A DNA stretch of 64,000 nt, taken from assembly GCA_039648975.1 (NCBI GenBank), contig JBBWZK010000425.1, forward strand, positions 272 to 64,271. The letters run 5' to 3'. The stretch is from Blastocatellia bacterium (GTDB taxonomy: Bacteria; Acidobacteriota; Blastocatellia; UBA7656). Both the position numbers and the translations under genes were made by a program. The notes beneath the pieces were generated by a model. It did not search any database, had not been told where the DNA came from, and was given only the letters and a program-made list of their open reading frames with translations. Positions 19,321-50,669 of this stretch are shown here, one piece after another; the stretch's first letter is position 1, and each line of letters begins with the position of its first letter.

Positions 19321-19363
19321 ACTGTCTTCAAGACAGCGACCGCAAAGACGCGCACGTTTCGTT
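19321..19363 (+). repeat. attL candidate (43-bp direct repeat, left copy)
   Basis: actgtcttcaagacagcgaccgcaaagacgcgcacgtttcgtt, 41/43 identical to 50627-50669. Confidence 0.75.
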
Positions 19364-19452
19364 CCCACCGCAAACACCTACACTTTTACGCGGTTGCAGC
19401 GCCTGATGGAACGCTAGATTTCGCTTCAATACGTTCCTCTACGGGATAACCC

Positions 19453-19470
19453 GGTCAAGAAAATGTCACA
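19453..19470 (+). repeat. 18-bp perfect repeat (ggtcaagaaaatgtcaca), left copy
   Basis: Identical to 50528-50545 in the same orientation. Both copies lie inside the element, about 100 bp from the att cores. Confidence 0.7.
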
Positions 19471-19581
19471 GTGAAGTTTACTGAGATGGCGAAGGCGAAG
19501 ATCATTACACTGCGGCGAGATGAAGCGCGAGGCTATGAAGCGTTGCGCCAGTAGGCCGCGCGTGATGACGCGGCGCGCTTC

Positions 19582-19842
19582 GTGCTGGCCGTGCTCGCCT
19601 CGCGCCCGGTGATCATCGGCGACCCGGAGCCGCAAAAGTGGTTTGTGCCGTCGACGTCGCGCGCCGGCGAGTTCCACATCGTTGATATTGAATTGCGCGT
19701 TTGTGATTGCGCCGGCTGGAGTTTCAAGCATCACTGTTCGCATCTGGCCATCGCAGATCGCGCGGCGCGGCTGCGCTATGAACTGACGACTTCGCCGGCC
19801 TTGCCGGTTGACGATTTCGGCCCGCATCCGTCGCGTGATTAG
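19582..19842 (+). CDS. SWIM zinc-finger protein
   Basis: CDCAGWSFKHHCSHL matches the CxCx(n)CxH SWIM signature. GTG start. An in-frame upstream ATG at 19486 is separated from it by a TAG at 19552. Confidence 0.6.
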   Translation: MLAVLASRPVIIGDPEPQKWFVPSTSRAGEFHIVDIELRVCDCAGWSFKHHCSHLAIADRAARLRYELTTSPALPVDDFGPHPSRD

Positions 19843-20108
19843 TTGCGCACGTTGAAGGGTGATCGCATCAGAGCCTGATGCATGGGCTTGCCGGGCGATT
19901 CTGAAAAATGAATCGCTCGCTTTTTTCATTATGGGACGATTGCCCGCCGTGTTATAGTAACTTCACAGCCGAGCGGCAGACTCGGCAGGTTCCAAAGGCT
20001 CAAACAATCGCAACTACAATTAAGGCTCATCACCACCCTTCGCAACTACCGTGCGCGCACGATTCGGTTTTACAAGTGTGGCCTCTGCTACACACCGGAG
20101 GATAAGCT

Positions 20109-20477
20109 ATGGCTTATTGCGAATTAACCGGCTCGCCGGTCGGCTATGATGGGCAGACCGTGCAGCCCGGCATTGTAATTACTTGCTACAAGGTTTTGAG
20201 CAATGCCGGCAGCATCATGCCGACGCAGATAAAAACCTTCACTTCCATGCTCGATGGGACATGGAAGCCGCCGCTACGCTTCGAGCGTGGAAGCGTCGCT
20301 TATCTGTACATGAAAGCGCCCGGATTCGACCGCGATAAAGATCACGGCTCGCCTTTGCAAATCCCTGATGAGGCCACCGCCGAACTGAAAGCCATCTCTG
20401 CCGCCGTCAGTCTGCCGCAGCAGGTTCCGGTGGCAATCCCGCCGTCGATTGTGGGCGATTTCATCAAGCTCGAATAA
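20109..20477 (+). CDS. hypothetical protein
   Basis: 122-aa ORF with RBS ggagg 7 nt upstream. Confidence 0.55.
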   Translation: MAYCELTGSPVGYDGQTVQPGIVITCYKVLSNAGSIMPTQIKTFTSMLDGTWKPPLRFERGSVAYLYMKAPGFDRDKDHGSPLQIPDEATAELKAISAAVSLPQQVPVAIPPSIVGDFIKLE

Positions 20478-20506
20478 GCGAAGACTCTATAAAGGGAATT
20501 ACAATC

Positions 20507-20680: not shown

Positions 20681-23032
20681 ATGAAAAAGCAACTGACCAT
20701 TTTGGCAAGCATTCTCGTTGTTCTCTTAGCCGTTTGCGGCCTCGCACTGGCGCAAAGTCAATCTGTCAATCAACTGCCGGTCACTACTACCCCGGCGGCC
20801 ACTGACAAGCTCTACATCGTCACCAGCCCGGCCAGCTCGCCCGCCTCGCGCGCCGTCACGGTCGCAACCCTGCTCGGCAACAATGGCATTCAGGCAGTCA
20901 ATGTTAAAGCGTTCGGCGCGAAGGGTGATGGCTTTGTCGTGACCGACGGCGCGATGAACAGCGTCACCAACACGTCGACGCTGACCTGTTCGACCTCGCA
21001 CCCGTTCACGGCGGCAATGGTCGGCATGAGGATTGACGTGAATCAAGCCGGGGCGCTGGCAAGTTCTTATTACAACAATTTGACCGGCACGATTGTTTCT
21101 TATATCAGTGCATCTCAAGTAACCGTCTCGTTTACTTGCCTGCACACAGTAAGCGGCGCGCAAGTGGTTGTCACCTCAGACGACACAACGGCGATCAGCA
21201 ATGCGAAGACTGCGGCGGGCGCACACGGCACGGTTTATTTTCCGCGCGGCATCTACGGCATCTCTGCGCAACTCTCGCCGCTCTCAGAACAGACATGGGC
21301 CGGCGAGGGCATCGGCGTCTCTGTGCTCTATCAGATGGGCGTCGTGAGGCCGACGAGCGGCAGCGCCTACAACGGCATCAACATCGCCGACGGTGTACAG
21401 GATGTCACGCTACGCGATTTCAGCCTCAGAGGGACGAACCTCCAAGGGGCAAGCATCGCCGGCGCGGTCGCCTTCGGCATCAAGGTCGGCACCGGCGCGG
21501 GCGGCGCAATTTCCAATGTCACCATTCAAAACGTCGAGGTCGGATTCATCTATGGCCTTGGCCTTTGCTCTGACGGCGATGCAGGCGACCAGGCCGGCGC
21601 GGCGGCTACCGTCATCAATACCCGCATCCTGGCTTGTAATATCCACCACTGTAGCGATAACGGGGTCAACGTCAACACCGGCGGCGGCCTGGAGATCGGG
21701 GGGTCGTTCCTCACTGATAACGGCGCGGCGGGCATCGAGTTCTCCGGCTCGCTCGCTAATTTTCATGACAATTTCATTCTCAGGAATCGCGGCGGCGTAT
21801 CACTCGGCGGCCTCGGCAATCCGAGTTTGGGCAGGGATAATCTACTGACGCGCAACTTCATCGCGCGCAACGGCAGCGGCGGCAGCGGCGCAGGCGTGCA
21901 GATCGGCGGCAACGTAGTCCACGCGCTCGTCAGTTGGAATTTCATCAAGGAGAATGAGTATCAAGGGGTAGGGATCACAGACGGCAATCCTGACTTCGCT
22001 TCACTCTCAAGAGATATTACTGTCGCACAAAATCAGATCATCTCGAACGGCACGAGCTTCCCCGGCAGAGGCATCGTCGTCGGCATGGATGATGTCGTGA
22101 TCAGTGAAAATGACATTTTCGATGACGGCGTGCCGGGATACTCTCAAAGTTTCGGCCTGGTGATCGGCAATGATAATGTGAAGCTGTTGCACAACCGGGC
22201 GCGCAATAATCCGGGCTATGATTATGTGTTCGGCTCCTGCACCAATGCGCGGCTGGTACGCGATGATACAATCAGCACTATTCAGCAGTATGAGCCGAAT
22301 GGCTGGCAAGGTACGCTCGACACGAGTTCGACAACCGCGACGTGGAAAAGCGGCAACCTGTTTAACTCAAAATGGGTCGGTGTGCCGCTCAAGATCGGCT
22401 CGGTTTATTACGCCATCTCAGCCGTCGCCGCTGCGCCAACAGGCAACTTCACGGCGAGCGGCCTGACCATCACGCGCACATCGGGAACAAGCTTTGATAC
22501 TGCATGGGCCGGCAAGTATATCAGGCTCGGCGCGTCGCTTTACTTCCCGATTGCATCTGTAGCAGACGGCGACCATCTGACGATCAGCAACGGCATCGGC
22601 AACACCGTTCCGGCCTCTGGCGCGTGGACGCTGAACGGCTCAGTGAGCCTTACGCTTGCGGCATCTGCCGGCACGCAGACCGGCGCGGCATGGGTGATCC
22701 CGCCGCACGTCACATACTCGCCTGAGAACGCGGTTTTGCAGATCGTTCCCTTTTCGGCGACGCCGGTCTTCGATGCGAGCCAGGGCAACACGATGCGAAT
22801 TGATCTGACGGCCAACGTGACATCGAGCCAGATCATAAACGGGGTTGACGGGCAGATCATCACATTCATCATCGTGCAAGATTCTGGAGGTAGCCATACG
22901 TTTTCATGGCCAACGAATGTATTGTCACCTACAACCATCGGCTCGACGGCGAGCAAGTTTAACGTGCAGAGTTTTCGCCGGCTCATCGGGTTCTGGTTCC
23001 CGATTGCCGACGGCAAGACGAATCTTGGATAA
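20681..23032 (+). CDS. secreted right-handed beta-helix protein (pectate-lyase/tailspike-like)
   Basis: Signal peptide. VNVKAFGAKGDG...TVYFPRGIY N-terminal signature, then repeated G/N/I-rich beta-helix turns. Confidence 0.8.
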   Translation: MKKQLTILASILVVLLAVCGLALAQSQSVNQLPVTTTPAATDKLYIVTSPASSPASRAVTVATLLGNNGIQAVNVKAFGAKGDGFVVTDGAMNSVTNTSTLTCSTSHPFTAAMVGMRIDVNQAGALASSYYNNLTGTIVSYISASQVTVSFTCLHTVSGAQVVVTSDDTTAISNAKTAAGAHGTVYFPRGIYGISAQLSPLSEQTWAGEGIGVSVLYQMGVVRPTSGSAYNGINIADGVQDVTLRDFSLRGTNLQGASIAGAVAFGIKVGTGAGGAISNVTIQNVEVGFIYGLGLCSDGDAGDQAGAAATVINTRILACNIHHCSDNGVNVNTGGGLEIGGSFLTDNGAAGIEFSGSLANFHDNFILRNRGGVSLGGLGNPSLGRDNLLTRNFIARNGSGGSGAGVQIGGNVVHALVSWNFIKENEYQGVGITDGNPDFASLSRDITVAQNQIISNGTSFPGRGIVVGMDDVVISENDIFDDGVPGYSQSFGLVIGNDNVKLLHNRARNNPGYDYVFGSCTNARLVRDDTISTIQQYEPNGWQGTLDTSSTTATWKSGNLFNSKWVGVPLKIGSVYYAISAVAAAPTGNFTASGLTITRTSGTSFDTAWAGKYIRLGASLYFPIASVADGDHLTISNGIGNTVPASGAWTLNGSVSLTLAASAGTQTGAAWVIPPHVTYSPENAVLQIVPFSATPVFDASQGNTMRIDLTANVTSSQIINGVDGQIITFIIVQDSGGSHTFSWPTNVLSPTTIGSTASKFNVQSFRRLIGFWFPIADGKTNLG

Positions 23033-23480: not shown

Positions 23481-23876
23481 ATGAGAGATAATGAGAGACA
23501 AACGGCGGATTTGCTAACCGCGAAGCAGACGCGGGCGATGCTGGCGATGCTCGAGCATCCGACGATCAGAGAGGCGGCGGCGGCGGTCAAGGTCAACGAA
23601 TCAACCTTGTATCGATGGTTACAGGAGCCGCGATTCAAAGCGGCTTATATGGAGGCCCGGCGCGAAGCCGTGTCACAATCCATCGCTCATTTACAGAGCG
23701 TGACCGGTGAGGCCGTCACCTGTTTGCGCGACGTGATGAAAAGCTCATCGGCGAGCGATGCCGCGAAAGTGTCAGCCGCCCGTGCCGTGCTGGAGTTGGC
23801 GTTGAAGGCGGTTGAAGTCGAAGACTTGGCCGAACGGGTGAAGCATCTTGAAACCTTGCTGGAGCAAAAGAAATGA
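23481..23876 (+). CDS. small HTH protein (phage regulatory / terminase-small-subunit-like)
   Basis: HTH-like segment TIREAAAAVKVNESTLYRWLQEPRF. The stop overlaps the next start. Confidence 0.55.
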   Translation: MRDNERQTADLLTAKQTRAMLAMLEHPTIREAAAAVKVNESTLYRWLQEPRFKAAYMEARREAVSQSIAHLQSVTGEAVTCLRDVMKSSSASDAAKVSAARAVLELALKAVEVEDLAERVKHLETLLEQKK

Positions 23877-24623: not shown

Positions 24624-25250
24624 TACTCTGCACGATGTTAAAAGACGGGATTGATGGTGTACACTGGAATCTTGCAGGCCCCAGCTCCGCCGCGTCACCT
24701 TGCGGGACAAGATAAGGCGAAGGTCATCTGTCCCACCTCTGCATGGGCCTCCTGTCCTTGTTATAAGCTCAAGCAAAATAATCGTTTAATAATCAGCTTC
24801 GTAAAGGTTCCACGCGGGACATTGCGGGACAAGCAGAGGGGGGAGAGACTATCCTACTCATGCGGGCGGGCGATGCTGAACCGACGCATAGCGACGCACC
24901 AAAATAGCCCGCCGTCGCGTTTACTTGACCTGTAAGCATTCCGGGGTCGTGGCCCGTTCGGCAAAGCAATCGCCTCAGACAGCTAAGGCAACTCGCACGG
25001 CGATGGGCTGTAGAGATGTTCCTAGCGTGGGTTATTTGTCCCCAAGCGCCCCATTCAGCGACATTGAATAGAATTTTGCCAGCCGGCAACATAGCCCTAA
25101 GTGGGACAAGTAAATGACCAATTTCCTGCTTCCAGGAGCGGGCTGATGGAATACTCCTTGCAGTTGTGTGGGGGCCCTCGTCGTGTAGATACCCTTGCAG
25201 AAATTTCTGGGGCAGCCGAAGCCTGGCCAACTCAGGGAGCAAACAGTCCA

Positions 25251-28200
25251 ATGAAATCAATAAAATCAAGTGGTGGAGAAATGACTGCGGTGAAGAAAGC
25301 GTTTTTGCCTAAGTGGCACTATATCTATTACCTGCTGGCGGCTTTCGATGTGCTCATCGTCTTGATGAGCCTGTTTCTCACTCATCATATCGTTGGCAGT
25401 TACACAAAATCGCTCTCCGTCAATCAGGGATGGTCTGAACGAGTTCACAGGTTTGCAGAACTCGATCCGCTGGCTAGTGCGGTAGACCGACCAGGCAACG
25501 ACATCTTTGAATCGCAGGACGTAGAGGCTGAATTTGCGAAGACGCGTAGCGCGGTGGAGGCTTTCAACGAGCGCATCGATGATCTAAGTACGGAGGTCAG
25601 ACGTGACATAGCCCAGGAGCAGGCAGGTATATTGATAGAAAACTTGCATGCGGCCAAGGCCAAAGTAGCCGAGATGGCTGACGAGGCGGGCTTGATCTTT
25701 GCCTATTTCAAACTGAATCAGCGCGACATGGCTGCCAAGCAGATGGTGGCGCTTGATCACAAGTACGACGAGTTCAGCCAGGTATCGGACCGCTTACGCG
25801 AAGACGTCGCGGCAATTCAGAAGGAACTCTTCTCCAAACAAGAACTATCAGCCGCTTCTCAGCAGAAGTTCGAGTACATCATTGCCGTATGTGTTCTCCT
25901 GATGGTTAGCGCAGCGACCCTCTATGGCCACAAAATCGCCAAGCAGATGCAGGCAGATGCGCAGGAAAAAGAGCGGCACATTGAAAGTTTGCGAGATGCA
26001 AAAGAGGCACTGCGTGGGGCGCACGACGGCTTAGAGAAACGCGCCGCAGAGTTGGCAAACGTCAATGATGCATTGCAGCTTGAAATCACCGAGCGTGAGC
26101 ATGTGGAAAAGGCACTCAGGCAAAGCGAAGAGCGCTACAGATCGATCATTGAAAATATGCACGACGGCTACTTCGAAATGGACATCAGAGGCAATTTAAC
26201 CTTCTTCAACGATGCTCTATGCAAAGTACACAAACGGTCGAGGGAGGAGTTGCTCGGCAGGAATAATCGAGACTACATGGACGCGGAGACCGCCAAAAGG
26301 TTTTATGCCATCTTCAAGCAAGTCTATGATACCGGTGAAACCGTTAGGGATCTTGTCTGGAAGCGCACACGGCCAGATGATGGCGAGCGCTGGTTTGAAT
26401 ATTCCGTCTCCCTGATGAAAGATATCGAAAGTAAGGCCATCGGCTACCGGGGAATCTCGCGCGACATTACCCAGCGCATCCTGTACGAGGAAGCCCTGCA
26501 GAAGTCCAAAGAATCAGCCGAAAGTGCCAGCCGCGCCAAGAGCGAGTTTCTCGCCAATATGAGCCACGAGATTCGCACCCCCATGAATGGCATCATCGGC
26601 ATGACGGAGCTTGCGCTAGATACTGACCTTACAGCCGAGCAACGCGACTACCTCGGTATGGTTAAGGCTTCAGCCAATTCTCTAATGACCGTGATCAACG
26701 ATATTCTCGACTTTTCCAAAATTGAAGCCGGCAAGCTTGATCTTGACGCCACTGACTTCAGCCTGCGCCAGAGCCTCGGTGAAACCTTGAAGACACTAGC
26801 AATCAGGGCGCATGAGAAAGGCCTTGAGTTGGCCTTCCAGATTTCTCCTGATGTGCCGGACCTGTTGGTGGGCGACGCGGGCCGCCTGCGGCAGATCATT
26901 GTTAACCTGGTCGGCAATGCTATCAAATTCACTGATGAAGGCGAGGTCATCGTCCGCGCCGAAACCCAATGGCGGAACGATGACGAGATCGGCCTGCATT
27001 TGGCGGTCGCAGACACCGGCATTGGCATCCCGGCTGAAAAACAGAGGCTGATCTTCGATGCCTTCACTCAGGCGGACGGCTCGACTACACGCCAGTATGG
27101 CGGCACCGGGCTGGGGCTGGCGATCTCCTCCCAACTGGTTCAATTGATGGGCGGTCAGATTTTGGTCGAAAGCAAACCCGGGCGCGGCAGTAACTTTCAC
27201 TTCACACTGCCTCTCGCGCTTGGTAAGGGAGTGGCCAAAATACCGGTTCCGGCTGAACCAGTCGAGCTGCGCAACTTGCGTGTCCTGGTGGTTGATGACA
27301 ATGCCACCAATCGGCGCATTCTCGAAGAGATGCTGATCAACTGGCATATGCGAGCGACGGCAGTTGATGGGGGAAGGGCCGCGATTGACACTCTGAAGCA
27401 GGCTCAGGCTGCCGGAGAGCCGTTTACCCTCGTGCTGCTCGATGCTCAGATGCCGGAGGTGGATGGCTTTATGGTGGCTGAACAGATCAAGCAAAGCAGT
27501 GAACTCGCCAGGACGACTATCATGATGCTGACCTCCAATAATCAGCGCGGCGATGCGGCCCGCTGCCGGGAGTTGGGCGTCGCTTTATACATTACTAAGC
27601 CCATTATGCAGGCAAACCTTATTGACGCCATAATGACTGTTCTAGGCACGGCATCACCTGTCGAGGTGTTGTCGGCTGGAACCCTCCAGCGCTCGCCCTG
27701 CGAAAGCCGAGGCCACGTTCTTCTAGCGGAGGATAACGCGATTAACCAAAGGTTAGCGGTTCATCTGCTGGAGAAGCAGGGTTACACGGTCGTGGTCGCG
27801 GTAAATGGCAAGCAGGCGCTTGCCGCCCTGGAAAAAGAGCGCTTCGATCTTGTCCTGATGGATGTTCAAATGCCTGAGATGAATGGCTTCGACGCCACCG
27901 CTTTGATCCGCCAGAGGGAGCGAACAACCGGCGCGCACGTCCCGGTTATCGCCATGACTGCCCATGCTATGAAGGGAGACCGCGAGCGCTGTCTCGAAGC
28001 TGGAATGGATGAGTATATATCGAAACCCTTACAGGTTAATGAACTCTTGCGGGTGATCCAAGGTCTGCTCCCTGTATCTACCACGCCCGACCAGGTGCCA
28101 GTTGAGAAGGCGTTCAACGCTGAGGCAGTTGTCGCCCAAGTTGATGGCGATATGGATCTGCTGCAACACCTCATTAAATTGTTTCTCGCAGAACTGCCAA

Positions 28201-28451
28201 GTTATCTGTCGGAAATGCGGGAAGCTGCCGCACGCGGCGATAGCGAAAGGTTAGAGCGTACCGCCCACACCCTGAAAGGTTCGGTCAGCATTTTCCACGC
28301 CAGCTCTGTTGTCGAAGCGGCCCATCGGCTGGAAATGGTGGGACGTCAAGACAACTTGGCCACCGCAGAGGAGGCATTAGCCGCGTTGGAACACGAACTC
28401 GCCTGGCTTAAGCCGGCGCTGATCACATTTGAAATGGAGTATGCACAGTGA
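25251..28451 (+). CDS. hybrid sensor histidine kinase (TM, coiled coil, PAS, HisKA, HATPase, 2 receivers, HPt)
   Basis: H-box [16 protein letters not shown] and G2 box GTGLGLAIS. Receivers VLVVDDN...[11 protein letters not shown] and VLLAEDN...[11 protein letters not shown]. HPt AHTLKGS. Start chosen at MKSIK; alternatives are 25101 and 25281. Confidence 0.9.
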
Positions 28452-29168
28452 GCGGCCTTATTGCCGTGGACGACGCGCGCTATCACACTGTTTGCTTGAG
28501 GCCAAGCTGAGACATTGGGCCGTGGCAAAGCTTACGATAGCTTCTGCCGGCGCCTAATGCTACAGATCACCGGATCGCCGCGCAGCATATTCCCACTCAC
28601 CTCACTTTGCAAGCAAGCGGTTGCTCGCATTACGGCCCGGCTGTGGAGGTAGCCGCCGCCATGGTGCGCCAAGTTTGAGATATGAGCGTTCAGAGGCTCT
28701 ATGCCTCACCTGGCCAGAACCTCGCCTCAGATGGCCTAAGCAGCGCACACAAGAATAGCCTCTAAGCCGATACTTCAACGAACGCTCGCTGGATCCTCCG
28801 TTCTGTTGTAGGACAAAGCTCGACAGGTGGGGCTCAAAACGTCTTACCCAATAATAGGGTTCATCCTGATACCCATCTATGACTCGGTTTTTTATACTCT
28901 GGGGAAGAAGTGCGGCAACATTACTGCCGGGCTTTTTTCGATGATCGACGTGCCCTCTCCTTGCTAGTTGGAACTACCGATTGAACAGCACATGAGGCGG
29001 ATTGGTTACAACCTCCTCTGCGGCTATAAAAAACATTGTGCTGTAACTTACAAAAGGACTATCATCGCGACGCGGGCGATTAATCGCGCCGCTCGTATCT
29101 GATGCAACGGGCATCGAAAGCACTGCGCGACAGCCGGCTACCATCGCCATACTATTGGAGTAACTAAG

Positions 29169-30665: not shown

Positions 30666-30922
30666 GAAGGCTATGACGATAGGTGGACGCGCAGGATTGA
30701 CCTATTAAGGGCGCTTCTCCCTCGCCGGCTACACGATCCCTCACAACGAAATCGCCTTAGACGGGCAAAGCAGCGCGCACGGGGATGGTATGCAAGTGAG
30801 ATTTCAACTCTGGCAGCGCCCGCTCCTTATAATAGCCTTACCTATTTGACATGCATATTACTTTTGCATAGAACTATCCGGGGAGCCACACGCGGCGAGA
30901 TTACAGCTTGCCCAAGGGTTGA

Positions 30923-36340: not shown

Positions 36341-36342
36341 GC

Positions 36343-40515: not shown

Positions 40516-41430
40516 ATGCGGAGAGAGAAAAACGGCAAGCCGGGGCGCAAGCGTAAAGCCGTTACGCTTGCGGATACGATAAAAGCGACTGTCAAAATCT
40601 CTGCTGAGATCGAATCAAAAAACGGTGTCCATGTTTGCCTAGTCACGCTTCAGTGTGGAACCGACGAGCCGCGGGAGTTTCGCATCGGCCCGGCTTATAT
40701 AGGTAAGCGGACAGGCAGGCAATGGCGTGAGGTGCAGACAATCTGGACTCGCGCATATCGCTATCTCTCCGAGTATATCGGCGGTGCGATGCTGCACACG
40801 GCTCATCAGTTGACCGATGAAGGCAGCTTCGCGGCCTGGCCGGATTTCAACGCCGATGAGTTTTGCGCAGCATCTGGCGATTTGCGCCGCTATGACGAGG
40901 CCGCCGGGAGTAGGTTCACGGCGGGCAAGCCCTACGAAGACGGTGAATACTTTCTTTATGTGATGGGTGACGTTGCCGCCAGAGCCCGCAACCGGCTAAG
41001 AGGATGGGAACCGTTAAACATTGGAAGTCCAGCGGTGATTCGCTACAGCATGGACAAAATGAAACGAATGATAGAAGTCCATTCAGAATATGCGGAACTA
41101 TGGGCAAAGGCTCGCGAGCTTCAGATAAAGAGCGAGCGACGAGGGGAAACCGACTGGCGCGACCAAGCGAAGCGGCATTATGGAAAGCTCAACAAGCCTA
41201 GCCTCGACAAGTTCTTTGACCTCTTGGCCGAAAAGCATGAAGGGAAAACCAAGTGGACGCCGGGTGATGTTGTCATTATCCATGCTGCGGGGGGAGCCTA
41301 TATGAACAATAGGGGCAGTTGGGGATTCGGCCCTATGATTGAGATCACAACAACGGCGCAAGTCAAAGCGCTCGACCGTGAGATGAAGGCATTCAAAGCG
41401 CGCGAGATGATGACTCAGGACAAAAATTGA
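40516..41430 (+). CDS. hypothetical protein
   Basis: ATG at 40516 follows aagagggg (MRREKNGKPGRKRK...). 304 aa. Confidence 0.6.
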   Translation: MRREKNGKPGRKRKAVTLADTIKATVKISAEIESKNGVHVCLVTLQCGTDEPREFRIGPAYIGKRTGRQWREVQTIWTRAYRYLSEYIGGAMLHTAHQLTDEGSFAAWPDFNADEFCAASGDLRRYDEAAGSRFTAGKPYEDGEYFLYVMGDVAARARNRLRGWEPLNIGSPAVIRYSMDKMKRMIEVHSEYAELWAKARELQIKSERRGETDWRDQAKRHYGKLNKPSLDKFFDLLAEKHEGKTKWTPGDVVIIHAAGGAYMNNRGSWGFGPMIEITTTAQVKALDREMKAFKAREMMTQDKN

Positions 41431-42555: not shown

Positions 42556-42963
42556 ATGAATGCCACACAGCCCGCTCTGCCCTTCGACTCATCGCCGCCA
42601 CTGGCTTCGCGCCGGCGCAAGCGCAACGCCAGCACGGAGGCGACAGCACAGGCGCGCGCCGACGCATTCGACAAGATCAAGGGCAAGCGCGGCAAGCGCC
42701 ATCTGCTGATTCTTCATGCGATCGCCCAGCACGGCCCGATGACGACGCGGCAGGTGTTGCGATGTCTGGTTGCGCAAGGCCATTTGCCACCAACTGCCGA
42801 GCGCAATCAAGTCAGCCCGCGTCTCTCAGAGATGGCAGAGGCTGGCTGCGTCGAGGCCCTCGACGAACTGCGCGTTGTCGGTGATGATACGCCGGCGACC
42901 GCCTGGAAGATTACACCGCGCGGGCAGTTGCTGATTGAAGATTCGGAGCCTGAGAGGAACTGA
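42556..42963 (+). CDS. winged-helix DNA-binding protein (MarR-like fold), hypothetical
   Basis: LILHAIAQHGPMTTRQVLRCLV...VSPRLSEMAEAGCVEAL. The stop overlaps the start of the Toprim protein gene. Confidence 0.6.
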   Translation: MNATQPALPFDSSPPLASRRRKRNASTEATAQARADAFDKIKGKRGKRHLLILHAIAQHGPMTTRQVLRCLVAQGHLPPTAERNQVSPRLSEMAEAGCVEALDELRVVGDDTPATAWKITPRGQLLIEDSEPERN

Positions 42964-44180
42964 TGGCTGCGGCTACGGCATCACTATACGCGCTCACTGA
43001 GCGCGACTATGAACGGCTTGCACGGTCGACGATCCCGCGCCCCATCGCTGATCAATTCTGCTTTCGAGTTGACGACATCGAAGGTGCCACGCAGGTCGGC
43101 CAGAGGCTGACCGCTGAACGCCTGATGCGCGGCATCATCTTCCGTTATTTCTCGCCCTGGGGCGGCCACGAGCGCGAGCGCCGGTTGCGCCGTGATGTGC
43201 CGGATGCGAGTGGCGATGGCAAATACATTGGCCCGCCTGACCGCCCGCCGCTGTTGTTCTTTCCCTTGCTTGTCAATGATGAACAATTCCGCGCCTGGCT
43301 TGAAGATTCAGCGATTCCGATTGTGTTTGTCGAAGGCGAGAAGAAGGCGCTCGCTCTGATGCGCATCGCTCTCGCCAATGCCGTTGGTGGCCGCCCGCCG
43401 TTCATCGTCATTGGGCTGGCCGGCGTCTGGTGTTGGAAGCGCAAAAACGGCCCGCTGCCTGACTTCGATCTGATTCCGTGGCGAAGCCGCCAGGTCTCCA
43501 TCTTCTTCGATTCCAATGTCCACACAAACGCCAAAGTCCGCAGCGCGCGACAGGCGCTTGCTGATGAACTACATCACAATCGCAGTGCAAAGGTCTTCTT
43601 TGTAGAGATGCCGCACGACTGTGAGCTGAACGGGCCGGATGATCTTGCTTACGCTCACGGTGATGAGGCCGTACTCGATTGCATTGAACAGGCAAAGCCG
43701 GCCATCAAGCCGACCGCGCAGCCGCAAAAAGAAACGATAGAAGAGCGCATCAGGCGCGGTGTTTTCCTTCGCGCCGCCGTCGCCAATGCACAGGCCGCGC
43801 CGGATGCGAGCGAACTGGCAAAGCAGACGCTCGGCGCGAAGGTGTGGCGGCGGCTGGCCGTGCTGTGGGCGCAGGCCGGCAAGCTCGAAGCCGAAGAGCG
43901 CGACCTGTTGTTCACCCTGCACGCGATGAGTGATGGCGAAGACGAGTTTGATTTTTATTACCTTGATCTTTACAGGCTGTTATTCCCATGCGACAGCAGC
44001 GAACTCGACGCCGATGGCCGGCTCACGAGCAGCGCCCGGCAAAGGATTCGCCGACGCTTCGACAATCTCGAAAGGGCCGAGCAGCAAGGCGGCATCCAAT
44101 TCGCAATAGTACGCAAAGGATCGAGAGACGATGACGGGCATCATTATCCCTCGCATATTCGTCTCTTGTCTCTTGGCTAG
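42963..44180 (+). CDS. Toprim-domain replication/primase-like protein (DUF3854-like)
   Basis: IPIVFVEGEKKALAL, VIGLAGVWCWK and QVSIFFDSNVHTN, a pattern typical of plasmid/ICE DUF3854 proteins. Confidence 0.7.
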   Translation: MAAATASLYALTERDYERLARSTIPRPIADQFCFRVDDIEGATQVGQRLTAERLMRGIIFRYFSPWGGHERERRLRRDVPDASGDGKYIGPPDRPPLLFFPLLVNDEQFRAWLEDSAIPIVFVEGEKKALALMRIALANAVGGRPPFIVIGLAGVWCWKRKNGPLPDFDLIPWRSRQVSIFFDSNVHTNAKVRSARQALADELHHNRSAKVFFVEMPHDCELNGPDDLAYAHGDEAVLDCIEQAKPAIKPTAQPQKETIEERIRRGVFLRAAVANAQAAPDASELAKQTLGAKVWRRLAVLWAQAGKLEAEERDLLFTLHAMSDGEDEFDFYYLDLYRLLFPCDSSELDADGRLTSSARQRIRRRFDNLERAEQQGGIQFAIVRKGSRDDDGHHYPSHIRLLSLG

Positions 44181-44204
44181 ACAGAACAAATCGAAAGCCT
44201 CGCC

Positions 44205-44663
44205 GTGACGGATCCACAATACAGCCGGAGCAAGCAAGCCGCCTTTGAGCGTGCGGTGGGAAAATTTGTTGAACTCAAAACTGGAAGCCCGGTCAAGCGC
44301 CGTCACAAGCCGCCGCGAAACCCCTTCAAAGAAATCAAAGACGGTTGGAGCCGAGTCGAGGGCGCTCTGCGTGCGACTGTCGAGCGGATGCGCGCCGAAG
44401 GGTACGAAGACTGGGCGATCTGGCAAGATTTGGAAAAGCACCTTCCGGCAGAGTTCATCGCTTTCCTACGGTCTGAATGCAGTGCAGCGCCGGTCGCCAA
44501 CGAGCCGGAAATTTGCGCCGCCGAGGTGAAACCTAATCATGAAGAGATAAAGGTTTCACCTGACCCGCCGGAGTCGTCTGCCGACCCCTCTGACGAGGCC
44601 CTAAAATCAGCCGAAAACAGGCCGGTTTCGGGGCAAATGCCAGGTTTCAATTTTGGGCATTAA
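44205..44663 (+). CDS. hypothetical protein (GTG start)
   Basis: 152-aa ORF downstream of the Toprim gene. Confidence 0.5.
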   Translation: MTDPQYSRSKQAAFERAVGKFVELKTGSPVKRRHKPPRNPFKEIKDGWSRVEGALRATVERMRAEGYEDWAIWQDLEKHLPAEFIAFLRSECSAAPVANEPEICAAEVKPNHEEIKVSPDPPESSADPSDEALKSAENRPVSGQMPGFNFGH

Positions 44664-44668
44664 TATAC

Positions 44669-44697
44669 TTGACTCATACGGGATTCTATAGTAGAAT
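44669..44697 (+). promoter_or_regulatory. strong sigma70-like promoter upstream of the transposase
   Basis: ttgact, exactly 17 nt, then tagaat. The -10 ends 7 nt before the ATG at 44705, which implies a leaderless or near-leaderless mRNA. Confidence 0.5.
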
Positions 44698-44704
44698 TTG
44701 AGGT

Positions 44705-45694
44705 ATGGAAAGCCAAGAGCGAAATTTCCCGCAGACCTTGTTAGAGGCGATTCGATATTTCAGCGATGCTGACAACTGCCTCAGCTTCATGATCAAGATT
44801 CGTTGGGCTGACGGCCCGACCTGCCCGCGCTGCGAATCCAAGCAAGCCAACTTCATCAAGACTCGCCGCCTGTGGATATGCAAGGACTGCAAAAAGAATT
44901 TCACGGTTAAGCAAGGGACTATCATGGAAGATAGTCCGATTGGTTTAGACAAGTGGCTCAGTGCGATATGGATGATTGCCAACGATAAGAATGGGATAAG
45001 CTCTTATGAAATCCATCGTGGTCTTGGCATCACTCAGAAGTCGGCATGGTTCCTGCTGCATAGAATCAGACTGGCAATGCAGAATGGCAGTCTTGAGAAA
45101 TTCTCTGGCCCAGTGGAAGCGGACGAAACCTATATCGGCGGTCTTGCGCGCAATATGCACAAGAGCAAGCGCGCAGCGAAGATCAAAGGGACTGGCGGCA
45201 GCGGTAAAGCCATCGTCATGGGCATTCTTGAGCGCAGCGGCGACGTTCGCACTAAAGTTATAGAGAATACCAGCCGTGAAACCTTGCATGGCGAGATACG
45301 GGCGCATGTCGCACTCGGTGCGGAAGTCCACACCGATGCGTGGCCAGCTTATCAAGGGCTTTCTCCTGATTATGTTCATCAGGTCATCAACCATGCTATT
45401 GAATACGTCAGAGGCCATGTTCATACCAATGGAATAGAGAACTTTTGGAGTTTGGTTTCGCGCTGTCTCAAAGGAACCTATGTTTCTGTGATGCCCTTTC
45501 ATCTGTTCCGCTACTTGGATGAGCAAGGCTTTCGATTTAATAACCGCAAGTTTAACGATTCTCAACGATTCCTGATGGTCTGTAATCAGATGTCAGGCCG
45601 TCGCCTCACCTACAAGCAACTCACAGGTAAAACGTTGATGCGGGATAGCAATAATCCGCGATTTGGATTCGTGGATACGCTATTTCCGCTATAG
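44705..45694 (+). CDS. IS1595-family (ISXO2-like) transposase
   Basis: N-terminal zinc ribbon CPRC...CKDC, an HTH region, and DETYIGG in the DDE domain. No terminal inverted repeats were found around it. Confidence 0.85.
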   Translation: MESQERNFPQTLLEAIRYFSDADNCLSFMIKIRWADGPTCPRCESKQANFIKTRRLWICKDCKKNFTVKQGTIMEDSPIGLDKWLSAIWMIANDKNGISSYEIHRGLGITQKSAWFLLHRIRLAMQNGSLEKFSGPVEADETYIGGLARNMHKSKRAAKIKGTGGSGKAIVMGILERSGDVRTKVIENTSRETLHGEIRAHVALGAEVHTDAWPAYQGLSPDYVHQVINHAIEYVRGHVHTNGIENFWSLVSRCLKGTYVSVMPFHLFRYLDEQGFRFNNRKFNDSQRFLMVCNQMSGRRLTYKQLTGKTLMRDSNNPRFGFVDTLFPL

Positions 45695-45703
45695 AGAGGA
45701 TTG

Positions 45704-45856
45704 ATGAAACCAATCATTCGACCACAGCCCGAAGACACGCGAACGCCTTACCAACGGTTTGAAGACCTCGCAAGGCAGGTGCTGACAGTGCCGAAGAAAG
45801 AAATAGATAAGAGGCAAGAAGAGTACGAACGAAAGAAGAAAAAGAAAAGGAAGTAA
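45704..45856 (+). CDS. small basic-tailed hypothetical protein (50 aa)
   Basis: Manual ORF MKPIIRPQPEDTRTPYQRFEDLARQVLTVPKKEIDKRQEEYERKKKKKRK with RBS agagagga. Confidence 0.3.
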   Translation: MKPIIRPQPEDTRTPYQRFEDLARQVLTVPKKEIDKRQEEYERKKKKKRK

Positions 45857-46303
45857 CTATTCACCTCGACCTTGTATTTTAATGATTAGTGGGTAATCTG
45901 CTATCTCTTGCCAATCATTGCCTTCAGCAACTTCCCTTAGAGACAGCTTCAACGACGCGTTTCCTAGAGGCATTACAGGAAATCCACCAATTTGCATCGT
46001 GGTTCGCATATTGGGTTTATCAGGTTGAAATTGAAACGGCAACGAGACATCAAGATAGGTTCGATCTTCCTTATTTAATTGGACACGCCCCTCAAACTGT
46101 TTATTTTCATCTCCATCTTCCATGCGATAAACCGCCAAAATATACCATCTAAAAGGTACAGCCCGATCAGAGTCCTCTTTGATTTCTAGCTCTGGGGGCA
46201 CTGCAAGATTTATAACCTCTAGAACAGAAATCAGAGAAACAGTATTCTCCTCCTGACTTATAATCACCCTTTCGCAAGGCAAGAAAACAAGAAGTCTTGG
46301 CAT
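45857..46303 (-). CDS. hypothetical protein (AT-rich cassette, gene 4)
   Basis: 148-aa ORF, MPRLLVFLPCERVIISQEENTVSLISVLEVI.... Lies in a visibly lower-GC segment. Confidence 0.6.
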   Translation of the reverse strand: MPRLLVFLPCERVIISQEENTVSLISVLEVINLAVPPELEIKEDSDRAVPFRWYILAVYRMEDGDENKQFEGRVQLNKEDRTYLDVSLPFQFQPDKPNMRTTMQIGGFPVMPLGNASLKLSLREVAEGNDWQEIADYPLIIKIQGRGE

Positions 46304-46315
46304 GATCTTTATTCT

Positions 46316-46714
46316 TTAGGCTGCTGTTTCCAGAGTTGCAGGCCCTCTCTGCAAAGGCGAATAGTTAAGGCGTATAGAACCCATTCTTTGGCCTACAGAA
46401 GCACTATTAGCAATAGATATGGTGATTCTATGGCTTACCTGAACTGGCAATACTTTTTGCGCAGATGGTACGTATGATTCAGACCACAGGCCAGCGCGCT
46501 TTAACTGGTCAACAGGATTCCAGTCTGCGGGCGGTCGAGTCGCATCGCTAAACCACACCATACCAGACTCTATCCATTTTTGTCGTAACTCAGCGTGGCT
46601 CACCTCATAATCGTCTAATTCAAATTCAACCCCACAGCTAGGGCAAATATAAAACCCCTGCGGAGGTCGAGCCATCTTATCGAATCCACAAACCGGACAA
46701 TTGTAATAAGGCAT
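46316..46714 (-). CDS. zinc-ribbon protein (CPxCG...CPxC), hypothetical (cassette gene 3)
   Basis: MPYYNCPVCGFDKMARPPQGFYICPSCGVEFELDDYE. Confidence 0.6.
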   Translation of the reverse strand: MPYYNCPVCGFDKMARPPQGFYICPSCGVEFELDDYEVSHAELRQKWIESGMVWFSDATRPPADWNPVDQLKRAGLWSESYVPSAQKVLPVQVSHRITISIANSASVGQRMGSIRLNYSPLQRGPATLETAA

Positions 46715-46723
46715 TGTTTCCTC

Positions 46724-47020
46724 CTATAGACAAGTATCAACGAAGTACTTACGCGGATTGCTTCTAGTAAGTCTAAAATACGTTCCTATAAATCCATCCG
46801 CGTGAAGAACTCCAATCTCACAAGTAACGTTATTGAATCGCACAGTAGCGCCATCTCTGGCTCTCACTCTTTCCTCTGTATTAGCATCTAATGGGCAATT
46901 CATAAATTCTATTGCAGCGGACTCATATTCGGCCTCGGTATCAAATGCAAATTCACGCCTCTCTATAATATGCCTTTTAAAATGGTTGGCCAAATCCATA
47001 AAGCCGTGTATAGGCGGCAC
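46724..47020 (-). CDS. small hypothetical protein (cassette gene 2)
   Basis: 98-aa ORF, HFKRHIIERREF...GATVRFNNVTCEIGVLHADGFIGTYF. 9 nt upstream of gene 3. Confidence 0.6.
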   Translation of the reverse strand: MPPIHGFMDLANHFKRHIIERREFAFDTEAEYESAAIEFMNCPLDANTEERVRARDGATVRFNNVTCEIGVLHADGFIGTYFRLTRSNPRKYFVDTCL

Positions 47021-47151
47021 TCCATTAGTCCTCCCTTATATTGTACTACCCTGGTATAGACATATAAAGCGGCGGCTATCATACTACGACGAGCGGGCGA
47101 AGTCTAGCGTAAGGTGAGTCACGGCAAAAAGCATGGGGACTAAATGCAAGC

Positions 47152-47901
47152 CTAGCCATGCAGTCTCAAATATGAGCCGTAGCTTATTGTTTTGACTCCG
47201 ATGATTAAATGTACGTCATGTATATTTTCTCCATCTGTCAATGGAGTTAACAAGTGATCCGTTTCAATGGTAAGTTTTGTAATCAGACTATCATCTTTTA
47301 GCAGGCAGTAAAAAGGGTCTTCGTCGCTTGTAGGAGTCTGACCAGCAACTTCCTGACACTCCTGCGGCATACGCAAGGCGTCAAGTAAAACCTTTATCCG
47401 ATTGTCAATGTCGCCACCGCCACTAACCAAATTACCCGGCTGGTCGCGTCTGAGAAACAGAACGTCAAGGGCGCATGCGTCCTCATCCCCGCGACCGCCG
47501 ATCAATGGCACAAATCGATAACCACAACGTGCATAATCATCGGCGAATATATCTATGAATAGCCGCGCATCGGGTCTATCACTTTCTCGATCTCGCAAAT
47601 ATCGGCGTAAACGCGGATCAGCCTTCCATAGCTCTCTCAGTTGCGGATGTAGGGTTTTTCTGATGCGATGCTTGTCTTCGTTCCGAGTTAGTGATCGACC
47701 AGCGGCTGGCAGTCTCCCCTGATAAACGAGGCGAAATTCCATATCAGTAGCGCCCTCAATTCCCGGCCACGAATCATAAACAAACTCCTGACGCTGCGGC
47801 CATTGGGATACTGGCACATCTACAGAATATGAGTCAAGTATATCATTGCCCAATTTTGATACCTGGGAAATGCCTGCATCCTCTGTAGATGCAACAGACA
47901 A
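47152..47901 (-). CDS. RusA-like endonuclease-fold protein (cassette gene 1; start uncertain, TTG 47901 or ATG 47742)
   Basis: GGGDIDNRIKVLLDALR...LLKDDSLITKLTIE matches the RusA DxDNxxKxxxDAL...DD signature. Confidence 0.6.
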   Translation of the reverse strand: MSVASTEDAGISQVSKLGNDILDSYSVDVPVSQWPQRQEFVYDSWPGIEGATDMEFRLVYQGRLPAAGRSLTRNEDKHRIRKTLHPQLRELWKADPRLRRYLRDRESDRPDARLFIDIFADDYARCGYRFVPLIGGRGDEDACALDVLFLRRDQPGNLVSGGGDIDNRIKVLLDALRMPQECQEVAGQTPTSDEDPFYCLLKDDSLITKLTIETDHLLTPLTDGENIHDVHLIIGVKTISYGSYLRLHG

Positions 47902-47931: not shown

Positions 47932-48031
47932 CAGCTACCAATCGCGCGCGCCCTGAAATGCCCGGCGGATCGCCGCCAATCCGGTGTCCATCAGCGAATC
48001 GTCGAGTGAAGCTTGATTATGCGGGGTGGTG

Positions 48032-48943
48032 ATGACAGCAGCAGTTTATGAGTCTAGTCCTATAAAGCGAAAGCGGCGCGGCTTCGATGCCATTGCGACG
48101 GTGCGCGACGCGCTTTATGACGTGCTGTCGGCAGAGCACCCGATGACCGTGCGCCAGGTCTTCTACCGGCTGGTGAGCGCCGGCGCCATTGAAAAGACGG
48201 AGGCCGAATATAAATCAACCGTCTGCCGCTTGCTTGGCCGCATGCGGCGCGAGGGCGTCGTTCCGTTTGGCTGGATCGCTGACAGCACGCGATGGATGCG
48301 CAAGCCGTGCACCTTTTCAACCCTCGAATCAGCGCTCGAACTGACGGCGCAAACCTACCGCCGGGCGATGTGGGACAATCAGCCGGTCTACGTCGAAGTG
48401 TGGCTCGAGAAAGATGCGCTGGCCGGCGTGCTGATGGATGAAACCGAGAAGTGGGACGTGCCGCTGATGGTGACGCGCGGCTATCCGAGCCTGTCTTATC
48501 TCTACTCGGCAGCCGAGCAGATCACGGCGATTGAAAAGCCGGCTTACCTGTATTACTTCGGCGATTACGACCCGTCGGGCGTAGACATCACGCGCGCCGT
48601 CGAGAGCGGCATCCGAGAATTTGCCCCTGACGCGGAGATTTATTTCGAGCGCGTCGCGGTGACGCCGGCGCAGATCAGGCAGTATGGATTGCTCACGCGA
48701 CCGACGAAGAAAACCGACTCGCGCAGTAAGAACTTTGAGGGCGAGAGCGTTGAAGTCGATGCGATCCCGCCAGCGATGCTTCGCCAGATGGCCAGAGAAT
48801 GTATTGAGCAACACATTGACGAAGACGCGCTGGAACGCCTGCACCTTGCCGAGCAGTCCGAGCGCGAGAGTATGCAGATCATCGCCGATGCGTGGCGCGA
48901 CGGCAGGCTGCGCTACGTGCCAGAAGAAATCGGTGAATCGTGA
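48032..48943 (+). CDS. stand-alone Spo11/topoisomerase VI subunit A-like protein (winged helix + Toprim)
   Basis: MTVRQVFYRLV resembles the R-x-(I/V)-(F/Y)-Y catalytic-Tyr motif. VEVWLEKDALAGVL supplies the Toprim Glu. TRGYPS and YYFGDYDPSGVDI match DxDPxG. Confidence 0.7.
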   Translation: MTAAVYESSPIKRKRRGFDAIATVRDALYDVLSAEHPMTVRQVFYRLVSAGAIEKTEAEYKSTVCRLLGRMRREGVVPFGWIADSTRWMRKPCTFSTLESALELTAQTYRRAMWDNQPVYVEVWLEKDALAGVLMDETEKWDVPLMVTRGYPSLSYLYSAAEQITAIEKPAYLYYFGDYDPSGVDITRAVESGIREFAPDAEIYFERVAVTPAQIRQYGLLTRPTKKTDSRSKNFEGESVEVDAIPPAMLRQMARECIEQHIDEDALERLHLAEQSERESMQIIADAWRDGRLRYVPEEIGES

Positions 48944-49100
48944 TGGAAGCAAGTATGAAAACTGTTTTGACAACGCCACAGCCGGTCGCCGTGCAATGCC
49001 GCAACTGCCGGCGCGCGCTTTCGCTGGGCGCGAGTGGCCGCGCCTGGTGCTATCGCTGCTGTCTATGGACTGAGCTTCAAAGTGTGAATGAGGTTTGAAG

Positions 49101-49460
49101 ATGAATGAACCATCAGCGTCAGATCGAATCCGTCTGCTCGAAAAGGAACTGGCAGAGATGCGCGTGCTGCTCACCGAAGTGGCGCGCAAGCAAGCCTGGC
49201 CTCAGTATCTCACTCGCAACGAGCTTGCCGAGTTGTTGCAGATCAGCCCACGCACGATTGACGATTGGGTGAGCGAGGATCGTATTCCATACCACAAAGC
49301 CGGAAACTCGACGCGCTTCCTCATCAGCGAGATCGTGCAGTGGACAGCCGGGCGATGGAGTCCGGCGAAGCAAGCCGCGCCGGCGAAGCCAAAGAGCAGA
49401 CCTGCAAGAAAGCGCCGTGCGCGTACCGGGGATGACAAACAGCAACTGCGGGCCTTATGA
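49101..49460 (+). CDS. xis: excisionase-family HTH protein
   Basis: LTRNELAELLQISPRTIDDWVSEDRIPYHKAGNSTRFLISEIVQW. Directly upstream of the integrase gene, which overlaps it. Confidence 0.75.
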   Translation: MNEPSASDRIRLLEKELAEMRVLLTEVARKQAWPQYLTRNELAELLQISPRTIDDWVSEDRIPYHKAGNSTRFLISEIVQWTAGRWSPAKQAAPAKPKSRPARKRRARTGDDKQQLRAL

Positions 49461-49507
49461 TGTCGCCGCTTCCAAACAGGCGGCTGCAACCGAGATGGAG
49501 GCAATCC

Positions 49508-50581
49508 ATGTCAGTCAGAAAACGCAAGCACCGATGGCACTACGATTTTCAGATTTGCAGCGTCCGCCATCGCGGTGCGATTCCAGAGGCACGCAACAAA
49601 GCCCAGGCCGAGCGCGCCGAAGCCAGGATCAAGCTCGATCTTTTCGAGCAGAGATTTGGTGACGGCATCAGCAAGAACTTCGCCGAGTTCATCGCCGAAG
49701 TATATGAGCCGGCGGCAAAGTCAAAACGGAGCTATCACACGGCGGAAAATCTTCACATTCGCACGGTGACGGCTCACTTCAAAACTTACGCGCTCGCCGA
49801 CATCAGCCTGATGGCCGTCGAGCGGTTCAAAAGAGAGCGGCTTGCCACGCCAGTGCAGAGTAGTGGCAAGCCGCGCACACCGGCGACGGTCAATCGCGAG
49901 TTGGGGGTTCTATCGCAGATCCTTGCCATGGCCTGTGATAACGGGTTGCTGCAATCGAACCCGTGCAGCAAGGTCAGGCGGCTGCGCGAAGACAACACCC
50001 GGACGCGCTATTTGACCGAAGCCGAAGAAGAGCAATTGATGACCGCAATCACCAAACCCTATGAGCGATTGCGGCCGCTGATCATTCTCGCGTTCGGCAC
50101 CGGCATGCGGCAAGGCGAGATTGCCGGCCTGACCTGGCCGCAGGTCGACTGGCGGCGCAATCTCATCATTGTGACGAACACCAAGAGTGGCGATGATCGC
50201 ACGATCCCGATGAATGAAACCGTCAAGGATTTGCTCGTCAGGCTCTGGCGCGAGTCCGACCAGTTGAACGCGAAGGTCTTCCAGATAAGCGCCGACGTGG
50301 TCTGTACCACATTCCACAGGCTTGCCCAGCGCGCAAAGCTTATAGACTTCCGCTTTCACGACCTGCGGCACACGTTCGCAACAAGGCTCGCGCCGCACAC
50401 TGACGTCTTTACGCTGGCCGCGCTATTAGGCCATAAGACGCTGGCCATGACGGCGCGTTACACGCACCCGACAGACGATGGCAAGCGCCGGGCAATCGCT
50501 GTTTTGAATACCCTGGCGCGCAAAGCTGGTCAAGAAAATGTCACAATTGACTTTCCGGCACAGGTAAGTAAGGCCGGCTAG
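49508..50581 (+). CDS. int: tyrosine-type site-specific integrase
   Basis: ATG at 49508 follows ggagg. C-terminal catalytic signature FHDLRHTFATRLA...LLGHKTLAMTARYTH. The ORF also opens earlier, at 49457. Confidence 0.9.
   Translation: MSVRKRKHRWHYDFQICSVRHRGAIPEARNKAQAERAEARIKLDLFEQRFGDGISKNFAEFIAEVYEPAAKSKRSYHTAENLHIRTVTAHFKTYALADISLMAVERFKRERLATPVQSSGKPRTPATVNRELGVLSQILAMACDNGLLQSNPCSKVRRLREDNTRTRYLTEAEEEQLMTAITKPYERLRPLIILAFGTGMRQGEIAGLTWPQVDWRRNLIIVTNTKSGDDRTIPMNETVKDLLVRLWRESDQLNAKVFQISADVVCTTFHRLAQRAKLIDFRFHDLRHTFATRLAPHTDVFTLAALLGHKTLAMTARYTHPTDDGKRRAIAVLNTLARKAGQENVTIDFPAQVSKAG
50528..50545 (+). repeat. 18-bp perfect repeat (ggtcaagaaaatgtcaca), right copy, inside the int 3' end
   Basis: Identical to 19453-19470. 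Confidence 0.7.
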
Positions 50582-50626
50582 CTCTTTGACTTGAGCAGTT
50601 AGAAGGTGGTGGGAGAAAAAGCGTGT

Positions 50627-50669
50627 ACTGTCTTCAAGACAGCGACCACAAAGACGCGCGCGTTTCGTT
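50627..50669 (+). repeat. attR candidate (43-bp direct repeat, right copy)
   Basis: actgtcttcaagacagcgaccacaaagacgcgcgcgtttcgtt. Lies 46 nt after the int stop. Confidence 0.75.

Follow-up and report, generated by a model that had tools for sequence, protein, structure and literature searches.

A 31.3-kb integrative island between ytxH and a BON-domain gene in a soil Blastocatellia genome, probably a cryptic phage-derived element

Phage-inducible chromosomal islands (PICIs), cfPICIs, and P4-like satellites combine an integrase and an AlpA/xis regulator with a divergent switch, a primase-type gene, and a terS-like gene, and are devoid of capsid and tail genes. The remnant prophages of Escherichia coli K-12 have kept int/xis and att sites along with orphan tail-fibre or regulatory genes, insertion sequences (IS), nonsense mutations, toxin-antitoxin (TA) modules, and cargo of benefit to the host. 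Here, we describe a 31.3-kb island, at positions 19321-50669 of a 64,000-nt stretch of a Blastocatellia genome (GenBank assembly GCA_039648975.1, contig JBBWZK010000425.1, forward-strand positions 272 to 64,271; hereafter, the window), that holds candidates for each of the gene classes of the satellites and is also like the K-12 prophages in the features named. It is inserted between two stress genes, ytxH and a gene encoding a BON-domain protein. The case for its integrative mechanism is about as strong as can be made from sequence data, whereas the kind of element is less certain. We consider it a non-autonomous, decaying (cryptic) phage-derived island and not a working phage, with a probability of roughly 0.6.

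The island is bounded by two direct copies of a 43-mer, ACTGTCTTCAAGACAGCGACC(G/A)CAAAGACGCGC(A/G)CGTTTCGTT, which form the identity blocks of attL (19321-19363, plus strand) and attR (50627-50669, plus strand). The copies are 41/43 identical and differ at position 22 (G in attL, A in attR) and position 34 (A and G, respectively). Both include the 15-nt palindrome CTGTCTTCAAGACAG (19322-19336 and 50628-50642), and no perfect copy of this 15-mer core occurs elsewhere in the window. Allowing up to three mismatches, the 43-mer gave 2 matches in the 64-kb window versus 0 in 100 shuffles. A 20-mer from the att core matched one of 185,579 species genomes, within an open reading frame (ORF) of an Acidobacteriaceae metagenome-assembled genome (MAG), which was judged a chance match as the similarity stops right after the 20-mer; in Joint Genome Institute (JGI) metagenome contigs it had no match. 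The repeats, their shared orientation, and their palindromic core are thus as described in the first-pass annotation, an earlier reading of this DNA, and the dispersed genomic repeat that it had named as the alternative was not seen, with no further 43-mer in the window and one chance-like match of the core in public collections.

Across the whole window, no tRNA, tmRNA, or Rfam family was found, and the att site is therefore not an RNA gene, in line with the first-pass annotation, which had excluded a tRNA. The repeat is located within an intergenic region of ~300 bp between the divergent ytxH (18806-19240, minus strand; Pfam YtxH 2e-14) and BON genes (50848-51450, plus strand; BON 7e-17). 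The start of the latter was placed at an internal ATG, and the true start is probably this ATG at 50848. Both flanking genes had been named correctly in the first-pass annotation, whereas the DUF948-like assignment of the gene next to ytxH (17957-18574, minus strand) is weak (E 0.005, below the cut-off). An exact-sequence look-up of the YtxH and BON proteins returned no record. A promoter-like site of ytxH, recognized by consensus match only, has its -35 element TTGAAG at 19331-19326, within the att palindrome, and a TG-extended -10 element at 19307-19302. Because attP has the same 43 bp, this promoter-like sequence at attL would be unaltered by integration.

Soil metagenome runs were compared with the window as assembled contigs, which drop rare forms. 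Run X1 is the probable source of the window, with 80-93% of the sampled window words present, and run X2 stems from a different study. A 2,939-bp contig of X2 (depth 6.28) aligns at positions 10-1562 to window 17813-19372, at 1511-1567 to 50627-50683, and at 1669-2938 to 50684-51970, so that its positions 1511-1553 act as att in both flank alignments. Because the same positions align to both repeats, this ~96%-identical relative has ytxH adjoining the BON gene with a single att. The empty site that had been suggested as a check, ytxH next to the BON gene with one 43-mer, therefore exists in a single X2 contig of ~96% identity. Its att differs from attL by A>G at 19339 and G>A at 19342, and the relative has 101 additional bases between att and the BON gene (window 50683/50684). 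The interior of the island was not found in X2, apart from the following: short matches to conserved kinase domains found in many organisms, a 640-bp match (90%) to the second kinase of the island at the depth of the host strain, and a separate Phd/ParE pair that is a 90% copy.

The boundaries are also supported by the attP regions of relatives. L002 and L003 are uncultured phage-like JGI soil metagenome contigs of 45.7 and 72.5 kb, whose integrases are 70% and 68% identical to the window integrase. They are rich in small ORFs and have HNH, N6_N4 methylase, Phage_P22_Y8K6, and Phage_ABA_S matches on both sides of int. Downstream of int, both run colinear with a sequence made by joining window 50520-50669 and 19364-19480. 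The order is a P arm (GGTCAAGAAAATGTCACAAT; TTCTTTGACTTGAGCAGTTAGAAGG), a variable stretch where the window has the repeat, and then a conserved P' arm, composed of TTTCGTTCCYACCGCAAA..ACACTTTTAYRCGGTTGCAGC, TACGGGA, and a second copy of an 18-mer arm motif that deviates at one to three positions. A distance of exactly 66 nt separates the anchors AGCAGTTAGAAGG and ACCGCAAA in the window, L002, and L003, and only the repeat-forming stretch varies between the three. The inner ends of the island are thus contiguous in these non-integrated relatives, which places its boundaries at the repeats without recourse to the empty site. The attP junction expected from the first-pass annotation is thus represented in phage-like contigs, downstream of related integrases and with identical spacing.

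In the window, the P' arm (19364-19480, plus strand), a conserved non-core part of attP colinear with L002 and L003, ends in the 18-mer GGTCAAGAAAATGTCACA (19453-19470), and the P arm (50520-50626, plus strand) comprises the 3' end of int and a spacer with the conserved block TTCTTTGACTTGAGCAGTTAGAAGG. The only other perfect copy of the 18-mer in the window, in the P arm (50528-50545), falls within coding sequence, and the 18-mer is conserved in both arms of L002 and L003. Positioned ~85-130 bp to either side, the two copies are putative arm-type integrase binding sites. The window palindrome and a 5-3-5 palindrome of L003 share a centre offset of 28, and this conserved register in relatives points to the palindrome as the core, with strand exchange presumably taking place at or near these 15 nt at the left end of the identity block. 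An attempt to place the crossover from the two att mismatches was abandoned, as positions left of 22 and right of 34 are equally parsimonious given A22/A34 in the attB of the relatives. Sharing of genes with L002 and L003 is confined to the xis-int-attP module (xis 64-72%, int 68-70% protein identity), and the target of these two elements is presumably different because their core sequences differ.

The tyrosine integrase (49508-50581, plus strand) comprises 357 amino acids (aa), in agreement with its relatives, and matches Phage_integrase (1e-31) and phrog_1 (5e-65). Its catalytic R/K/HxxR/H/Y motifs are complete (GMR, TKSG, HDLRH, LLGH, and RYTH, aligned to XerC-like 4a8e). Approximately 80 N-terminal residues precede the core-binding domain, and this extension appears to sit where lambda-type enzymes have their arm-binding domain. 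Close relatives were detected in MAGs of Blastocatellia and Pyrinomonadaceae as well as in metagenomes; a single-protein scan of IMG/VR with the integrase gave no match. Upstream of int lies an excisionase-type HTH_17 gene, xis (49095-49460, plus strand; E 4e-11), a candidate for a recombination directionality factor. Homologs 64-73% identical are located directly upstream of int in L002-L004, and the HTH_17 gene likely has this role. The presence of xis and a tyrosine integrase just inside the right repeat, another claim of the first-pass annotation, was thereby confirmed, and Xis and Int could still excise the element.

This recombination system resembles those of lambda-type integrases in the catalytic R-K-HxxR-H-Y set, the ~80-residue N-terminal extension, the helix-turn-helix (HTH) excisionase-type gene upstream, the position of attP beside int, an identity block that recurs in attB, putative repeated arm motifs flanking the core, and an attB that is intergenic, like that of lambda. 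It differs in the 43-bp length of the identity block and its asymmetry around the palindrome, and in a core palindrome of the 7-1-7 type in place of two sites around a clear 7-bp spacer. Moreover, one arm motif per arm was found in the island, where binding and crossover positions are predicted ones.

Other metagenomes contained further states of the site. A 254-bp contig of X21 consists of the ytxH-side flank, att, and a diverged left arm, and a 160-bp contig of X4 runs across the attL junction with 86% identity. As these contigs span attL, related elements occupy the same ytxH flank in other strains. In contigs of X1, X2, X3, and X5, the same P' arm is attached to other sequences, which indicates that this arm module is widespread in soils and combined with different cores. 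In X1, the depth of the island (8.7-10.4) matches that of its flanks (8.4-8.5), and there is hence no sign of replication or induction in this sample. A link of 50545 to 19471 in X1 was rejected as a circle junction, as it represents the attL contig matching the 18-mer repeat. X1 also holds a relative ~16 times more abundant (depth ~140 versus 8.5), with 92-95% identity over 17820-19400. The contigs of this relative end within att, at 19341, and none of its BON-side flank was detected at 90% identity or above.

Viewed as a circle, the island can be read from a regulatory region at ~36.7-37.0 kb. Rightward, it encodes an HTH_17 regulator, small proteins of no recognized family, a Phd/ParE pair, two unknowns of 323 and 320 aa, a 135-aa winged-helix protein, a DUF3854/Toprim protein, a 305-aa Toprim protein, Xis, and Int, followed by attP. 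Past attP, this direction continues with small ORFs, a 783-aa beta-helix protein, a 131-aa terS-like protein, and three PAS histidine kinases. Apart from xis-int, the Toprim gene, and the tailspike gene, the loci compared have no gene in common with the island, and on this ground the element is regarded as a mosaic. The Toprim gene, TA pair, three sensor kinases, and tailspike-like protein listed in the first-pass annotation were all found.

The DUF3854/Toprim gene (42963-44663, plus strand), a putative replication gene, is disrupted. It encodes 405 aa up to an in-frame TAG (44178-44180). The reading frame then stays open for another 161 codons, which can be aligned to residues 437-563 of a relative of 603 aa; the relatives of the protein measure 502-702 aa. 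The final codons and stop of the gene fall within the left inverted repeat of an IS1595-family unit, and the TAG and both IS junctions were confirmed in independent X1 contigs. DUF3854 domains have been found in proven Rep proteins of cyanobacterial plasmids (PMC10079941). One relative of the gene adjoins a Phage_capsid gene in contig L006, and another, 51% identical, is found in an integrase-bearing element with similar genes of 318 and 331 aa at the same positions. In that element, no recognized structural gene is present among the called genes up to 10 kb upstream. The Toprim protein matched phage records, and an alignment of its relatives reached 22 IMG/VR contigs, mostly of 38-66 kb; the single-protein scan of IMG/VR and a search of 72,556 plasmids with the Toprim protein gave no match. 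Translationally coupled to this gene is that of the 135-aa winged-helix protein (42556-42963, plus strand), with weak matches to Replic_Relax and phrog_1123. The 305-aa Toprim protein (48026-48943, plus strand) matches phrog_6247, annotated as "DNA topoisomerase" (2e-61), and weakly DUF2399/JetD-like proteins.

The IS1595-family unit (44632-47874) has 47-nt terminal inverted repeats, 83% complementary, a transposase gene (44705-45694; DDE_Tnp_IS1595, E 7e-40), and four passenger genes, AT-rich and encoded on the minus strand. A target-site duplication was not found, the flanking 8-mers being different (GGTTTCGG versus TGCATCCT). As a whole, the AT-rich segment 44632-47874 resembles one transposable unit within the island. 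Parts of the transposase are present in X1 at a depth of 120-180, and from this depth we infer transposase copies in a much more abundant genome.

The right-handed beta-helix protein (20681-23032, plus strand), tailspike-like and with a signal-peptide-like N-terminus, is over residues 70-783 56% identical to proteins encoded in the phage contigs L007 and L008, of 58 and 69 kb. There, the spike genes directly follow genes for a tape measure protein of 1,746-1,762 aa and a protein of 694-701 aa. The N-termini of the spikes differ in length and share the motif LYIV.SP.S.PASR. The Sec-signal-like start of the island protein, MKKQLTILASILVVLLAVCGLALA (20681-20760), has a likeness in the L008 homolog (10001-10070), which is odd for a virion protein. 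A few genes past the spike, L007 (13269-13847) and L008 (13873-14262) encode a response-regulator receiver or PAS protein, in the same relative position as the three PAS kinases of the island. Next to the tailspike gene is that of the 131-aa HTH protein (23481-23876, plus strand), small-terminase-like by matches of residues 5-107 to phrog_7344 (4e-9) and phrog_2538 (1e-8).

The PAS histidine kinases, three in number, are regarded as cargo (25101-32830, plus strand); two are hybrid kinases and one has an Hpt domain. The second kinase shares ~90% identity with contigs of X2 and X3 over its C-terminal half (29997-30636), and the X2 contig has the depth of the host strain, 6.28. Since X2 has this match at host depth yet no island, the kinase of the island may derive from a copy of a chromosomal host-lineage gene. 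Gene layout defines a divergent regulatory region with the first rightward gene at 36679-37212 (HTH_17 at 36970-37212). The leftward genes (32880-36678, minus strand) encode six unknowns, among them proteins of 111, 224, 233, 249 (with zinc ribbons), and 178 aa, and a PilZ protein (32880-33167), and the Phd/YefM-ParE TA pair is located at 38647-39326 (plus strand). Just inside attL, an 86-aa ORF (19582-19842) has a SWIM-type zinc-finger pattern, CDCAGWSFKHHCSH.

Scans with Pfam, PHROGs, and NCBIfam gave no match to a capsid, portal, large terminase, or tail protein, a relaxase, a type IV coupling protein, or a type IV secretion system (T4SS). Likewise, no lysozyme, amidase, or peptidase match for lysis was found in the island, whereas L007 and L008 do have such genes. 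Searches of PDB sequences with the tailspike, the 305-aa Toprim protein, and the 320-aa unknown were without a match, and PADLOC, applied to ten unknowns, gave sub-threshold JetD-like Toprim matches only. A 304-aa unknown (40516-41430) has 15 relatives among 1.84 billion representatives, and its model (predicted local distance difference test score 82) is mainly helical, with a three-stranded sheet and long helices. Foldseek found no match for it in PDB at E <= 0.001 and nothing capsid-like; the modelled fold is not that of a capsid and is otherwise uninformative on lifestyle. As no virion, lysis, or conjugation genes are recognizable, the island would be neither an intact prophage nor an integrative and conjugative or integrative and mobilizable element (ICE/IME). 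The first-pass annotation, which had noted the lack of capsid, portal, and large-terminase genes and called the element neither an obvious prophage nor conjugative, holds for gene content; its wording needs to be qualified in that the modules are clearly of phage origin.

We propose that a mobile island entered the chromosome of a soil acidobacterium, probably a member of Blastocatellia, by site-specific recombination, in which its own lambda-type tyrosine integrase would have joined attP to the 43-bp matching attB between ytxH and the BON gene. The island combines phage modules in a mosaic, namely xis-int-attP, the DUF3854/Toprim gene, the tailspike gene, the terS-like gene, the divergent switch, and the TA pair, with the three sensor kinases and PilZ as cargo, an IS1595 unit nested within it, and a broken replication gene. 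Several observations count against this explanation. Integrase, xis, tailspike, and most other genes are intact, and to call the island decaying is a judgement; the intactness of most of its genes also sets the island apart from the K-12 remnant prophages, and the TAG of the Toprim gene could be subject to readthrough or be a recent change. The tailspike gene precedes the terS-like gene, both just inside attL, and this order favors a designed helper-dependent element over a remnant because simple deletions in a standard late operon would not leave it, another difference from cryptic prophages. Derivation from such an operon by two simple deletions was rejected for the position of the tailspike gene upstream of the terS-like gene. 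For about half of the ORFs, no homolog was detected, and unrecognized structural genes may be among these. As to integration, the empty site is represented by one assembled contig per run, the attB of the relatives (A22/A34) fits neither window copy fully, and no excised circle (attP) or restored attB was present among the X1 contigs, where attL and attR contigs were the only forms and rare forms would have been dropped.

The chief rival explanation is a working phage satellite. Upon induction of a helper, the island would be derepressed, excised by Xis and Int, and replicated by its own module, its terS-like protein would divert helper packaging, and its tailspike would retarget the hijacked particles. 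An integrase, an AlpA/xis-type HTH protein, a primase-type replication gene, and a terS-like gene in the absence of virion genes are what such a satellite would have. The 51%-identical Toprim gene in an integrase-bearing element lacking a recognized structural gene among the called genes up to 10 kb upstream agrees with it, as does the placement of tailspike and terS-like genes together just inside attL and not in a late operon. The replication gene, however, has a nonsense codon and is truncated by the IS, the assignment to terS is based on E-values of ~1e-8 to HTH-rich profiles, and no excess depth was detected in the source sample. At 31 kb, the island has about twice the size of described satellites (~10-18 kb), and it still measures ~20 kb after subtraction of ~11 kb of kinase cargo and IS unit. 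It further differs from PICIs by its tailspike, three sensor kinases, and TA pair, and by the location of int at the distal end of the rightward operon and not beside the repressor. We know of no described satellite family that carries a tailspike, which also speaks against this explanation. On balance, we hold a working satellite to be the less likely case, and it is doubtful that the island represents a first Acidobacteriota satellite family with its own receptor-binding tailspike and a terS-like gene. If it did, helper capsids and tails would be borrowed while the island decides which cells are infected, and the kinases would be lysogenic-conversion cargo.

Conjugative transfer after excision, as in an ICE/IME, would find some backing in the sub-threshold Replic_Relax match of the 135-aa winged-helix protein, in the DUF3854 domains of plasmid Rep proteins, and in a weak ArdC-N match in the neighborhood of a relative. 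Set against the lack of a relaxase, coupling protein, VirB4, or other T4SS gene in the Pfam and NCBIfam scans, against a Toprim protein unmatched in 72,556 plasmids and matched in phage records and 22 IMG/VR contigs, and against relatives of xis-int-attP and the tailspike in phage-like contigs, this makes for a very unlikely lifestyle. An intact temperate virus with structural genes too divergent to be recognized appears highly improbable. Viruses of soil Acidobacteria are poorly sampled, and the ORFs without a family match, about half of the total, would leave room for such genes; however, kinases and tailspike aside, the largest unassigned proteins have 320-323 aa, and no candidate of 400-600 aa for a portal or large terminase is present. 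In addition, the 304-aa unknown is mainly helical with no capsid-like or other match in PDB, ~11 kb are cargo or IS, and the replication gene is broken. The chance that the repeats are not att sites at all, and arose as a local promoter duplication or by coincidence around ordinary chromosomal genes, seems next to negligible. Their overlap with the ytxH promoter-like site and the host-like cargo kinases would fit such an origin, which is contradicted by the empty site with one copy in a relative, the contiguous inner ends with exact spacing in related attP regions, the integrase and xis at one end, and an expectation of 0 such repeats by chance. The cryptic phage-derived island thus remains our favored explanation.

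Mobile elements of soil Acidobacteria are almost unstudied, and few strains have been cultured. The mechanism described here is textbook; the value of the case is in the unusually complete documentation of att sites for an uncultured lineage. The locus provides a complete, sequence-defined recombination system, with attB, attL, attR, a conserved attP layout, Int, and Xis, and public metagenomes hold the site in its empty state, occupied by the island, and as the left junction of related elements. One xis-int-arm module is common to soil phage-like elements that differ in their cores and, presumably, in their targets, and the recombination system of this island could serve as an integration tool for Blastocatellia.

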